NCBI GenBank assembly: GCA_965214775.1
Contig: OZ243974.1
Location: 1,888,001 to 1,952,000 of the forward strand
Source: Nitrosopumilus sp.
GTDB taxonomy: Archaea; Thermoproteota; Nitrososphaeria; Nitrososphaerales; Nitrosopumilaceae
Direction: 5' to 3'
DNA length: 64,000 bases
Every line of letters begins with the position of its first letter. The first letter of the stretch is position 1. The translations under genes and the position numbers were made by a program. Below are positions 12,928-42,373 of this stretch, piece after piece. The notes under the pieces are model-generated. The model did no database searches. It was not told where the DNA came from and worked only from the letters and a program-made list of their open reading frames with translations.

Positions 12928-13036
12928 CTTTAAAGCAGCGCGGTTTTTTACGTCATGTCCGAGCTGAAAACGGGGGGATGGGAAAAGCCCTTTCAATCTT
13001 CTTTAAAGCAGCGCGGTTTTTTACGTCATGTCCGAG
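12928..13036. repeat. 36-bp exact direct repeat pair with 37-bp spacer (CRISPR-like unit)
   Basis: CTTTAAAGCAGCGCGGTTTTTTACGTCATGTCCGAG at 12928-12963 and 13001-13036. Confidence 0.9.
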
Positions 13037-37770: not shown

Positions 37771-40409
37771 TAGACTTTATGCGTAATCGGCCCATCTGAT
37801 CTAAAAATACGACACAATAGATCATTATTTGCACACCAACAACCCTAAAGATCTGTATGATTCCCTAACTGTATGGGCTCAAATGACAAGACTCTCCAAG
37901 CATTTCAAGCGTTACAAGCGCAACACGAGATGCTAGTCGAGCAACACGAGATGCTAGTCGAGCAACACGAGCAGGTATCCAAGCAAAACAAACAGATGTC
38001 CAAGAAAAACGAGCGTATGAGGAAGCAGCTTGCGTTTGAGGACTCGTTGTGGCAGTCCGAAGAAAACAAGACAAAAAGAGTCGTGCGCGGCGGGACGCCT
38101 CTGCGGATGCACGCAATCGAGGTTGCAGACGGCATAATCGGCGATCCGGTGCGCCTTCGCAACGTCACGGGATGCACAAAGGAGTCATTTGAGATCATAC
38201 TGGAGCGCTTTACGGAAGAAGTCATGGACGACGAGGACAGACCCCTGTTCTGGGAGGACGACGTAAGAGGCGGCGATGCCGGAAACCGGTGCAAGCTGTA
38301 CATCAGGCACGCGCTGCTTGCAGTACTCATGAGCATAAGGACCAAGGCAACGCAGCATCATCTGGCCGCGACATTTGACGTCGACCAGTCCACAATGTCC
38401 AGGTACCTCCGGTACGGTGCCGTGTTACTGCGCCGGCTCCTGCCTGCCTCTCTATTGTACGAAAATTAGGTCGCACTAATTTGAGGAGGATTGCAGGGGA
38501 TTACTTTAGGCTTTACCGATCAAGAAAACCGATGGTTGTAAGGCTCGAGGCAAAGCAGATCAGATACGCAGTGACGCAATGTGCAGGGGGACGAAAGCCC
38601 TCGGAGGTGGCCCCGGAGATAGGCGTCACGACAAGGCACGTCCAGCGGATGTATGCCCGGTTCAGGAAGACAGGCGACACGCACCACGTGCCGCTCAAGC
38701 CGGGAAGGAAAAAGAGCGCCCCGGTTCCCGACGGGGACGTGCGCGCAGTTCTGGAGGAGTACAAACACAGTGCAGCAGGGGTGGTTCATACGGCCAAGAG
38801 GCTGCGAAGGCAACTCGATATAAGCTACTACGAGGTATACAGGATAATGAAAGAAAACGGGCTGGTGACGCCATCGGCTGCAAAATCAATGCCCAGAAAA
38901 TACGTCCGCTTTGAGCGCAAATACTCCAATGCCATGTGGCACGTGGACTGGCATACCATGAAGGATCCGCGCTTTGCAGGGCTCAATTTGGTCACGTTCC
39001 TAGACGACTCGTCCAGGTGCGTGACTGGTGCGGGCCTGTTCAGGGAGGCCACCTCGGAGAACGTCGTGGCGGTCCTGCGGCAGGCCGTGGCCCAGTTCGG
39101 CGCGCCTGCCACCATTTTATCAGACAACGGCAAGTGCTTTGTCGGGGCGCGCTCGGATCCGAAGAAGAAGAAGAGTCCGCCCAAGGGCGGATGGAGGCCC
39201 ACTGCCTTTGAGGAGGAGCTGCTCAACTGCGAAATCGGGCTGATAAACTCCAGGCCGTATCACCCGCAGACCAATGGCAAACTGGAGAGATTCCACAGGA
39301 GCATCGAGGAGGAGATATGGAACCACAAGAGTCTGTCTGCATACATCGACTACTATAACGAGGACAGGCTGCACTGGTCGCTTGACATCGACAACTACGA
39401 GACGCCGCTGCGGGCATTCTCCGACAGGGAGGCCACAGAAGCGATCAGGAAAAACAACCCAAGATGGATGGAGGAGGACATTGGTGATGGTGCGACATAA
39501 TTTTCATATAATACAGGCTCCTGCCTGCCTCCGAAAAGCTAACAAGCATCATCTGCAAGACCCCGGCAGGCAAGCTGGAGGAGGTGCTGATCCCAAAAAA
39601 GACGCTCCTGATTGACGGCACCCTGACTCCGGTAGACAGGCCCGGGGACAGGACCGCAAGAAAGACCAGATATTCGGGAAGAAAAAAGCGGCACATGTTC
39701 AACACGATAATTACCTCGAACCTGGACGGCCTCATACTGCACTGCGGCAAGACTGTGGACGGAAGCGTCAACGACAAGGGCGTGATGAACGCAGGGGGCG
39801 GCCCGGACTTTGGAAGGCACACCGGATCAATGAGGAATGCAAAAAACGCAGACGATCCGGAAGAGGCGTTTGTGATTTACAGCGACCTGGGATTTGAGGG
39901 CATTCAAAAGATGCTTCCGGGCGCCATACACAGGCAGCCCCCAAAGAAGCCCAGGGACGGGGATCTTACTGCAACGCAAAAGAGGCGCCGCAAGCAGATA
40001 AGCAGGGTCCGCGTCAGGGTGGAGCACCACATAGGACGGCTCAAAAGATATGGCATTCTTACCATGCCGTTTGGCGGAACTGCCAAGGATCTCAATTATT
40101 TCATGCAGATAATCACGGGTCTTGAGAACCTCAAGACTATGCTGAAAAGGAAAAAATACTATGGCCAGCTGCTGCAGCAGCTGCATCTGCTACCAGACAC
40201 ATGACATACGGCGGCACGGACCGCCATTCTTTCTGACTTGTCAACGGGGCACATTGCCGTGCTGCATGGTTGCGCACGTTCTTTTGGCGCAACTGACTTT
40301 TACGTGCGTCATGACACGAGATGCATGCGGTAATTTGATCCGATCAGCGCATTTGCGTTTGGAAAAGCCTACGGAATTTTTAATCACGGTCGATTACGCA
40401 TAAAGTCTA
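37771..40409 (+). mobile_element. IS5-family (ISL2/DDE_Tnp_4-like) element interrupted by IS481
   Basis: IR TAGACTTTATGCGTAATCG; transposase 37873-38450 + 39532-40204 rejoins in frame (IDGT, YSGRKK.H, SDLGF, RVRVEH.IG.LK). Confidence 0.9.
38451..39515 (+). mobile_element. IS481-family element, complete (transposase ~38532-39500)
   Basis: 25-bp IR; 16-bp TSD GGCTCCTGCCTGCCTC. Confidence 0.93.
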
Positions 40410-40462
40410 TTATTCAAATTGTGGATTCCTGTTGGATTTTTGGAGGTTTTGAACATGTTACC

Positions 40463-40592
40463 GGGGTTGTTGCCTAATTCATCAGAATTTCTGAAAATCA
40501 TACGATGTTATCCGGACTAGGCGTGCAAAAATGGCGGATATTCAGAAAAATGTGCGGGTTGAGTCCGGCAGGTGGAATTAGGCGACAACCTC
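40463..40592. mobile_element. 130-bp MITE with 9-bp TSD
   Basis: same family as 36778-36907; TSD CATGTTACC. Confidence 0.85.
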
Positions 40593-40816
40593 CATGTTAC
40601 CGTATAGTACGGTACCCTTATATCATATTTGATCATACATATGGCATGCAAGATACAGCATTCCTTCAGAGTAGCCTACACAAAATCCTCCGCACAGAAG
40701 GTCAGCTGCTATGTCTGTGGGAGTGATTGGTGGATGGATTTTCAATTACTGCCAAATCATTGCGAAATGACACTGCAATGCTTTGTCACATTCAATATGA
40801 GTGAGGGCAAGTCATC

Positions 40817-41203
40817 ATGAACCCGCAGGACGATTCAAAAAACTTGAGTGAGATTGTGATGGACAACTCCTTTCTGATTGCAATAGTCGCAGCAGGAGCA
40901 GTCATTCTGTCAGCTGGGTTGGATCCGTTTCACTCAGAGATGCTGCAGGCCCTGGGAGGTGCCTTTATTATCGCCGGTTCCGTAGGAATATACATGATGC
41001 TGGCAACACGCCGGGTAGTAAGGAGCCTTCACAAGCGGTTTGACGCATTAGATGACACCCTGAAAACCCATACCGAAATCCTCAAGGAGATGGCCTCATC
41101 TCAGAAGGAGATGACCTCATCTCAGAATCAAAATCATGGTGAGCTGATGGGTGTCATGACAAGGGTAATCTCTTCCTTGGAAAAAATAGAGAAAAAACTC
41201 TGA
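40817..41203 (+). CDS. small 2-TM protein with coiled-coil tail
   Basis: hydrophobic helices followed by RFDALDDTLK..ILKEM. Confidence 0.65.
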   Translation: MNPQDDSKNLSEIVMDNSFLIAIVAAGAVILSAGLDPFHSEMLQALGGAFIIAGSVGIYMMLATRRVVRSLHKRFDALDDTLKTHTEILKEMASSQKEMTSSQNQNHGELMGVMTRVISSLEKIEKKL

Positions 41204-41399
41204 TGTGTGTGGAAAACATCCTGACACTGCCAATACAGGAGGTTGAAAACCATGATACGTAGCAACGGGGGGTCACATCCCGTGCTGGCTAGGCATAGAA
41301 ATCATAATTACACATACCCAGTAGACGGAAATGTAACCCCACAAAGACCACCTCGACCCTACGGCGGCAGTGGTGGGCCGGCAAACCCGTATTCTGCAA

Positions 41400-41834
41400 G
41401 ATTCCTTCTAGCAGCCATGAGAAGCGCGCATGAAACTGGTAGTCGAGACACGCGCGCTGGCCGTAGCATTCAGGGAGGCAGGTTGCGCGAGATTTGCCAC
41501 AAAGCTTGAGAACGCCTCAGAATGCCTGTACACGTTCGTGCTGTATCCGGGCATGGAGCCCACCAACAACATGGCCGAGCGCATGCTGAGGCCGTCCGTA
41601 ATTGCGCGCAAGATATTCCAGGGACTCCGTACCATGGAGGGCATGGAGATGTTCACCGTGCTGATGACATGCACGATGAACTGGCGCGCCCAAGGGTTGC
41701 AACGTGAGTGAAATGGTCGCCAAGACCCTGTTGACGATTTCCCATTACATTATGGTGCCATACGTTGGTTGCAACGTGAGTGAAATGGTCGCCAAGACCC
41801 TGACTGGAAACGTCGCCTGAGGGGTAAACCCATA
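41400..41834 (+). pseudogene. IS66 transposase 3' remnant with right IR
   Basis: EPTNNMAERMLR; end GAGGGGTAAACCATAC. Confidence 0.8.
41695..41802. repeat. 36-bp exact direct repeat pair with 36-bp spacer (CRISPR-like unit)
   Basis: GGTTGCAACGTGAGTGAAATGGTCGCCAAGACCCTG at 41695-41730 and 41767-41802. Confidence 0.9.
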
Positions 41835-41890
41835 CTGCGATGATCCGCGCTTAACGTATATAAGAGAAGGTTCAAACTCGGTTTCTGTAG

Positions 41891-42373
41891 ATGGCCTATT
41901 CGAAAATATTAAGAAGACTTCGAGAAGAAAAGACCAATTATAAAAAACGCGGCACCATGCTTATGGGCAAACGTGATTTCATTACGGTCACCATTTCAAA
42001 TGAAAATACCCAAGTCCAAATTCTAAAGCCTGAAATGACTGGCGACAAGGTCATTGCATCGGCCCATTCCAGATATCTGTTGGAAAAAGGATGGAAAGGC
42101 TCCAGAAAGAGTGTCCCGGCCGCATATCTGACAGGATACCTGGCTGGAAAGAAGGCGCTTGGCCAAGGAGCAAACAATGCAATCTTGTATGCAGGTACCA
42201 GAAAATACACTCAAAGAATGGCAGCTGCCCTAAAGGGAATAATTGATGCCGGCGTCCAAGTACCTGCCAATGAGGAAACCTTTCCTGCCGAAGAGAGAAT
42301 TAACGGTGAGCATCTTACAGTAAAAAACGATGTCCTAAAAATGAAATCGACAATTGATACTGAGGTCAAATGA
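41891..42373 (+). CDS. rpl18: 50S ribosomal protein L18
   Basis: RR.RE.KTNY.KR, AAYLTG. Confidence 0.95.
   Translation: MAYSKILRRLREEKTNYKKRGTMLMGKRDFITVTISNENTQVQILKPEMTGDKVIASAHSRYLLEKGWKGSRKSVPAAYLTGYLAGKKALGQGANNAILYAGTRKYTQRMAAALKGIIDAGVQVPANEETFPAEERINGEHLTVKNDVLKMKSTIDTEVK

Follow-up and report, generated by a model that had tools for sequence, protein, structure and literature searches.

A 36-bp insert between exact 36-bp target duplications in a Nitrosopumilus genome, a probable scar of ectopic CRISPR spacer integration

At the tail of a truncated IS66-like insertion sequence (IS) in a Nitrosopumilus sp. genome lies a short unit, A-B-A, in which a 36-bp segment of unrelated sequence (B) separates two copies of a 36-bp stretch (A) from the end of the host transposase gene. 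The unit occupies positions 41695-41802 of the window, that is, the whole 64,000-nucleotide stretch analysed here, which corresponds to G000:C1:1888001-1952000 of a 2,833,656-bp single-contig genome. An earlier note made from the letters of the window had described an exact 36-bp duplication around an unrelated 36-bp segment, and this description was borne out. The two copies of A (GGTTGCAACGTGAGTGAAATGGTCGCCAAGACCCTG) are 100 % identical with a start-to-start distance of 72 bp, and they cannot be extended by even one base on either side, so that the duplication is exactly 36 bp; among dinucleotide shuffles of the window, 0 of 100 yielded two matches to A. The separating segment B (TTGACGATTTCCCATTACATTATGGTGCCATACGTT) is single-copy both in the window and in the genome, where its next-best match spans 12 nt. 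Inverted repeats were sought in and around B and none were found, in keeping with the note's opinion that the insert is not a miniature inverted-repeat transposable element (MITE). The coordinates of these and all other features are collected in Table 1.

The element that hosts the unit is clearly delimited by its relatives in the same genome. By BLAST, more than 12 other copies match 41436-41730 and 41767-41835 at 94-97 % identity, with only the inserted block interrupting the match, and the IS terminus (...GGGGTAAACCCATAC) falls at about 41835. A 93-aa open reading frame (ORF) at 41430-41711 matches PF03050 (DDE_Tnp_IS66, E 1.5e-08), and a full-length IS copy elsewhere encodes a 481-aa transposase with the C-terminal end ...NWRAQGCNVSEMVAKTLTGNVA (stop), confirming the assignment of the duplicated unit to an IS66 transposase tail (NVSEMVAKTL). 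While the peptide named in the note thus stands, its description as coding sequence requires amendment, as this copy is only a 3' fragment and is moreover frame-shifted. Relative to the 14 other copies in the alignment, its G-run at the left border of A1, the first copy of A, is one G longer, and contigs of other IS copies show 1-nt "left out" calls at 41692-41698, consistent with that position. Owing to the extra G, the upstream frame ends at a TGA within A1 (41709-41711), and three-frame translation places NVSEMVAKTL in a frame disconnected from the upstream transposase frame of this copy.

The other copies of the element also supply an empty site for the unit. All 14 (14/14) hold A once and continue to the IS terminus without B, and A1 and A2 both carry a sequence variant that is private to this IS copy. 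Contigs from four public runs (three studies) match 41701-41796 without a single difference. Three of the runs also reach the unique downstream flank, and in these the depth over the unit was 77, 683 and 14 against 79, 672 and 8 on the flank; one of the four runs may be the source sample, and such contigs prove presence only. Because independent contigs span the unit without differences and at a depth near that of the flank, we conclude that it is not an assembly artefact.

The note had stated correctly that no cas genes are present in the window; the genome itself, however, holds a cas operon about 0.5 Mb away and an orphan array about 25 kb past the window end. A six-frame search identified one Cas1 only (genome 2426073-2426972), which is intact and free of internal stops, measures 336 aa and matches TIGR00287 at 1.1e-64. 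Its operon also holds Cas4, Cas2, Cas6b, Cas3, Cas5, Cas7/Csh2 and a large unassigned ORF; the scores of Cas1, Cas2 and Cas4 exceed the NCBIfam cut-offs, and the operon is type I-B-like from its gene content. Adjoining it is Array 1, a CRISPR array with 68 repeats of 37 nt, the reverse strand of which ends ATTGAAAC, and a modal period of 72. Its 67 spacers measure 29 nt (1), 30 (1), 33 (3), 34 (16), 35 (25), 36 (12), 37 (5), 38 (1), 39 (1), 50 (1) and 57 (1). The irregular spacers (57, 29, 30 and 50 nt) are concentrated at 2424534-2424862, the cas-side and presumed leader-proximal end, and the remainder span 33-39 nt. When the Array 1 repeat was searched against the genome by BLAST, no match longer than 18 nt was found outside the array. 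The orphan Array 2 (genome 1977219-1978062) consists of 12 repeats of 36 nt that end ATTGAAGC and include an 8-bp internal palindrome, the last repeat being degenerate, with spacers of 36, 36, 37, 39, 38, 37, 36, 38, 38, 39 and 38 nt. No cas genes were recognised with NCBIfam and Pfam in the ORFs scanned beside Array 2; a prepilin-peptidase-like ORF and a Laminin_G_3 ORF are among its neighbours.

Both dimensions of the A-B-A unit fall within the geometry of these native arrays. The 36-nt length of B is shared by 12 of the 67 spacers of Array 1 and three of the 11 spacers of Array 2, and the 36-bp duplication compares with native repeats of 36 nt (Array 2) and 37 nt (Array 1). It also coincides with the modal duplication length of a family of similar solitary units, hereafter solo units, that is dispersed throughout the genome. 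We searched for this family by scanning for non-tandem direct-repeat pairs with a 30-nt window and at most one mismatch, after removal of both native arrays. Pairs numbered 5, 23, 16 and 12 at spacings of 71, 72, 73 and 74, respectively. Over the range 50-99, spacings not divisible by three mostly returned 0-2 pairs, and coding tandem repeats raise the counts at those that are. Removal of 14 tandem cases of short period left 47 units, and a further one that is still of low complexity (448826) reduces the family to 46.

The spacing of the 47 solo units is narrowly distributed (70 in 2 units, 71 in 4, 72 in 11, 73 in 16, 74 in 12 and 76 in 2), and its mode of 73 falls between the mode of Array 1 (72) and the range of Array 2 (72-75). 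The longest exact duplicated run measures 35 bp in 5 units, 36 in 13, 37 in 8, 38 in 4 and 39 in 1, with 10 further units degraded (23-34 bp) and 6 long (40-46 bp). A peak at 36 had been anticipated in the note, and the shape of the distribution, with its mode at 36 and a tail over 37-39, fits a fixed stagger of about 36 bp combined with chance identity of the adjoining bases. Both A and B differ in every unit, and the inserts are mutually unrelated. One of these units lies in the same window and again has an exact 36-bp duplication, here at a spacing of 73 (Table 1); its 37-bp insert matches genome 2358344-2358380 at 100 % identity, and the homology ends exactly at the insert borders.

A second empty site was provided by paralogues of the gene that bears unit 1275412, for which the two BLAST pieces overlap by 34-42 nt, each time exactly at the A-B-A of the query. 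A DNA search of 20 relatives for empty sites with two unit-bearing loci gave 0/20 matches, the genomes being too divergent. About 20 of the 47 units are located in IS-like DNA that is repeated. Several disrupt ORFs, which grow longer when the unit is excised, for example from 213 to 324 aa and from 258 to 330 aa, and several 72-bp units lie in frame within long ORFs.

The origin of the inserts is similarly informative. Of the 47 inserts, 18 (17 of 46 without the low-complexity case) are copied elsewhere in the same genome with at least 85 % coverage and 90-100 % identity, and in most of these the homology stops at or within one or two bases of the insert borders. In five units both borders are set without ambiguity by the source; four of these (1266906, 1900928, 2725140 and 2744112) have a duplication of 36 bp and one (2297249) has 37 bp. 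Among the 78 native spacers, in contrast, none (0/78) matches the genome over more than 17 nt. This asymmetry is as expected if the integrase samples self DNA freely; in that case self-derived spacers would survive only where there is no interference guided by CRISPR RNA (crRNA). Four of the 11 single-copy sources (source range 2358344-2615464) are found no more than 100 kb from Array 1 and the cas operon, a clustering with p of about 0.006 when the array is taken as the prior centre and about 0.12 for any window, and accordingly suggestive only. Cas1-Cas2 is known to sample DNA near its own array with some preference, and the clustering may echo such a bias.

We then compared the genome with those of its congeners. 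Of 61 genomes sampled from the family, 20 have Cas1. In a Cas1-positive congener (G032), of which 1.596 of 1.700 Mb was scanned, the native repeat is 36 nt and the array periods are 70 (10), 71 (33) and 72 (19); six solo units were found there in ordinary sequence, with duplications of 35-40 bp, inserts of 33-35 bp and spacings of 69-73, and for two of the six inserts a 100 % identical source exists elsewhere in the genome of G032. In a Cas1-negative congener (G054), 0 solo units were found in the 1.2 of 1.612 Mb scanned, and the only two matches at these spacings are short-period coding repeats. Unit geometry follows each genome's own CRISPR geometry, a parallel that with three genomes amounts to an anecdote and not a test. 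As a separate observation, G032 also harbors a two-repeat mini-array (G032:C1:43914-44025) with a repeat that closely resembles that of Array 1 described above and is unlike the main repeat of G032 itself.

Taken with the anatomy of the unit, its empty site, the length matches, the recurrence, the copied inserts and the parallel in the Cas1-positive congener, we consider that the unit is very probably the scar left when the genome's own adaptation complex, Cas1-Cas2 with Cas4, integrated a spacer at an ectopic (off-target) site. In the mechanism we propose, a 36-nt prespacer (B) would be captured by Cas1-Cas2, with Cas4, and its two 3'-OH ends would attack opposite strands of the tail of the IS66-like fragment 36 bp apart, a stagger that would reproduce the one normally made by the integrase across a single CRISPR repeat. 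Once both single-stranded gaps were filled in, the 36-bp target would be duplicated, giving A-B-A. Within this scheme we infer that Cas1-Cas2 is the enzyme, which attack came first, and how the unit is oriented. The conclusion agrees with the earlier note's interpretation of a natural ectopic acquisition scar, and none of the three contrary results named there was obtained: a single intact Cas1 with Cas2 and Cas4 is accompanied by arrays of 37- and 36-nt repeats, duplication sizes genome-wide peak at 36 (13 of 47 units) with spacings concentrated at 72-74, and the insert is missing from the other copies of the IS.

Several observations weigh against this interpretation. In five complex units (90701, 305641, 849741, 1281865 and 2701975), duplications of 43-46 bp enclose inserts of 26-32 bp, and in three of them the genomic source confirms that the insert is truly short; their total spacing nevertheless stays at the usual 70-76, such that duplication plus insert is about constant, where a simple ruler predicts otherwise. 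No clear protospacer adjacent motif (PAM) is apparent at the self-derived sources in either orientation, with TT at -3/-2 in about 5-6 of 14 as judged by eye, and the native spacers matched no genomic targets from which a native PAM might be read. The target sites carry 10.3 bits of information by expectation-maximisation over orientation, compared with 6.45 +/- 0.29 for random sites, and have no strongly conserved position, while their likeness to the native repeat ends reaches p 0.01-0.04 in a post hoc, uncorrected comparison of 31 units. The 36-bp duplication is one base short of the 37-nt repeat that lies beside the sole Cas1, and equals instead the repeat of Array 2, which no cas genes adjoin. 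A source for B was also sought, as the note had advised, in viruses, plasmids and the host genome, and none was found: exact 36-mer scans of viral, genome and metagenome contigs gave 0 matches, a method by which a diverged protospacer is undetectable; blastn against phages returned only two 19-nt chance matches (E 0.4); and there was no match among plasmids. Finally, the dependence on Cas1 is putative and is read from three genomes and from geometry.

Some of the same observations could be accommodated by a process independent of Cas1-Cas2, in which an unknown integrase, or a template switch during repair or replication, inserts 35-38-nt copies of distant sequence with a staggered duplication of about 36 bp. 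Such a process would be in keeping with the many inserts that are copied from the same genome, which resemble templated insertions, with the missing PAM and weak target motif, and with the five complex units in which long duplications and short inserts maintain a constant total length. We nonetheless regard it as improbable, as both lengths are narrow and match the native repeat and spacer lengths in two genomes (spacings of 72-74 in G000 and 69-73 in G032) and no units were seen in the 1.2 Mb scanned of the Cas1-negative congener. To our knowledge, no other enzyme makes a 36-bp target duplication around a spacer-sized insert.

Less probable still is a function for the unit, as a two-repeat mini-CRISPR or as another RNA or regulatory element under selection, as opposed to a neutral scar. 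The repeat-spacer-repeat anatomy and the identity still maintained between A1 and A2 would suit such a function, as would a partial match of the reverse strand to the native 3' handle: read on the reverse strand, the unit has GTTGCAAC at its end, set one base inside the border, and this matches the native ATTGAA(A/G)C at 6/8 positions. The note's likening of the opening (G)GTTGCAA to that of "many CRISPR repeats" finds weak support in this match, since about 5 % of random sites score as well against ATTGAARC. Opposed to a functional array are the nature of A as ordinary IS coding sequence that is single in 14 sister copies, the lack of matches to the Array 1 repeat beyond 18 nt outside that array, and the truncated and frame-shifted state of the host element. 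With about 46 units whose repeats are all different, no single recognition of the Cas6b type would be possible. The unit is probably inert: the transposase remnant around it is truncated and frame-shifted, and the "repeat" of the unit bears no resemblance to the native ones, which Cas6b would recognise.

A chance repeat, a simple tandem duplication or an assembly artefact can be set aside with near certainty. The multi-copy nature of the host IS is able to confuse assemblers, but the repeat failed to arise in any of the shuffles, B is foreign to the IS and missing from all other copies and from the rest of the genome, and the contigs of the four runs span A1-B-A2 without a difference, at a depth near that of the unique flank in the three runs that reach it. 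We also ruled out insertion of a MITE or transposon on the basis that there is no terminal inverted repeat, that B is unique, and that the inserts of about 46 units are unrelated. The unit does resemble the insertion of a transposon, MITE or casposon in that an insert is flanked by a direct target duplication; unlike these, the insert has neither terminal inverted repeats nor coding capacity, and the approximately 46 inserts all differ. A 36-bp duplication is, in addition, far longer than the target-site duplications of the IS66 family or of casposons.

Ectopic spacer integration of the kind favored here has precedents, which we compare as far as the accessible text of the cited papers extends. 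Off-target Cas1-Cas2 integration in E. coli in vivo is reported to create new repeat-spacer-repeat units termed "neo-CRISPR" (Nivala et al. 2018, Nat Microbiol 3:310). Among papers citing that study, IHF-like guidance is mentioned for E. coli, and the natural evidence, from two other species, is called "circumstantial". The units described here share with the E. coli type I-E neo-CRISPR a spacer-length insert, a repeat-length duplication, a non-CRISPR site and an active adaptation module, as well as the use of self DNA as a source of spacers. The E. coli units, however, were obtained with over-expressed Cas1-Cas2 in the laboratory, whereas the present ones are natural and fixed in the genome; they also differ in belonging to an archaeon with a type I-B-like system, in their duplication of about 36 bp, and in numbering about 46 in one genome. 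The archaeal Cas1-Cas2 of Pyrococcus furiosus also integrates spacers at non-CRISPR sites (PMC6698737); that work was carried out in vitro with plasmids, while the likeness of the targets to native repeat ends is marginal here. Ectopic acquisition in Streptococcus thermophilus (PMC7999890) similarly involves integration away from the leader-proximal repeat, but these events use genuine internal array repeats and the present unit duplicates non-CRISPR sequence. Viral and proviral stand-alone mini-arrays and solitary repeat units (PMC8616872) are likewise very short and located away from cas genes, yet carry host-like canonical repeats, whereas each repeat here originates from local sequence. 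No description of natural, genome-scale ectopic integration was found in the literature searched, which covered few subscription papers and no supplements, and the accessible part of a survey of thaumarchaeal mobile elements (PMC6563490) makes no mention of solitary units.

The event is thus of a known kind, and what is unusual is the number of natural sister events and the self-derived inserts. In our assessment, the CRISPR integrase of this archaeal lineage is likely to behave as an insertional mutagen that works genome-wide at a low level. The approximately 46 fixed integrations here and six in the congener would then record naive adaptation that samples self DNA often (17/46 against 0/78 native spacers, and hence seen only without interference), needs little beyond a ruler of about 36 bp, disrupts genes, adds in-frame insertions of 24 residues and supplies raw material for new arrays. 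In the literature searched, as far as it was accessible, most documented cases of off-target integration come from engineered E. coli and from in vitro work, and natural evidence is described only as circumstantial. Dozens of clean scars, many with sources and empty sites, in one finished genome offer natural data for testing what Cas1-Cas2 needs of a target in the absence of a leader or repeat, how precise its molecular ruler is, how frequently self DNA is captured, what disrupted genes cost the host and whether new arrays can originate in this way. A warning for annotation also follows, as two-repeat "CRISPR" calls in such genomes may be scars and not arrays.

The solo units are not evenly spread, and a hotspot at genome 1266242-1310726 contains seven within 50 kb (p about 0.005). 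Three of these occur within 1.6 kb in or just beside an unassigned 478-aa ORF, and one sits in a PMT-glycosyltransferase/Laminin_G_3 gene with paralogues. We do not claim a candidate three-repeat (two-spacer) unit at 1266834-1267014, as its first copy differs at 8/36 positions and by an indel, and it may be a native 72-nt coding repeat.

Within the window, the DNA upstream of the host element (38481-41435) is a mosaic of mobile-element pieces, the parts of which are listed in Table 1. On the other side, a ribosomal-protein gene (L18/L5e) begins at 41891, just past the end of the IS.

Table 1. Features of the window, with positions counted from its first nucleotide.
Feature	Position	Strand	Basis or remarks
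A1, first copy of the duplicated 36-bp target (IS66-like transposase gene tail)	41695..41730	.	Exact 36-nt direct repeat; single in 14 other IS copies
B, 36-bp spacer-length insert, putative ectopically integrated spacer	41731..41766	.	Unique in genome; missing from other IS copies
A2, second copy of the duplicated 36-bp target	41767..41802	.	100 % identical to A1
3' fragment of the IS66-like element hosting the unit	41436..41835	+	Genome BLAST, PF03050 match, IS-copy alignment
G-run with one extra G, left border of A1, frame-shifting	41694..41696	+	15-copy alignment; three-frame translation
Second solo unit	A 12928-12963, insert 12964-13000 (37 bp), A 13001-13036	.	Exact 36-bp duplication, spacing 73
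rve-integrase ORF	38481-39500		Upstream mosaic
DDE_Tnp_4 ORF	39584-40204		Upstream mosaic
21-bp tandem pair	41084-41125		Upstream mosaic
Fragments of two other repeat families	about 41201-41435		Upstream mosaic
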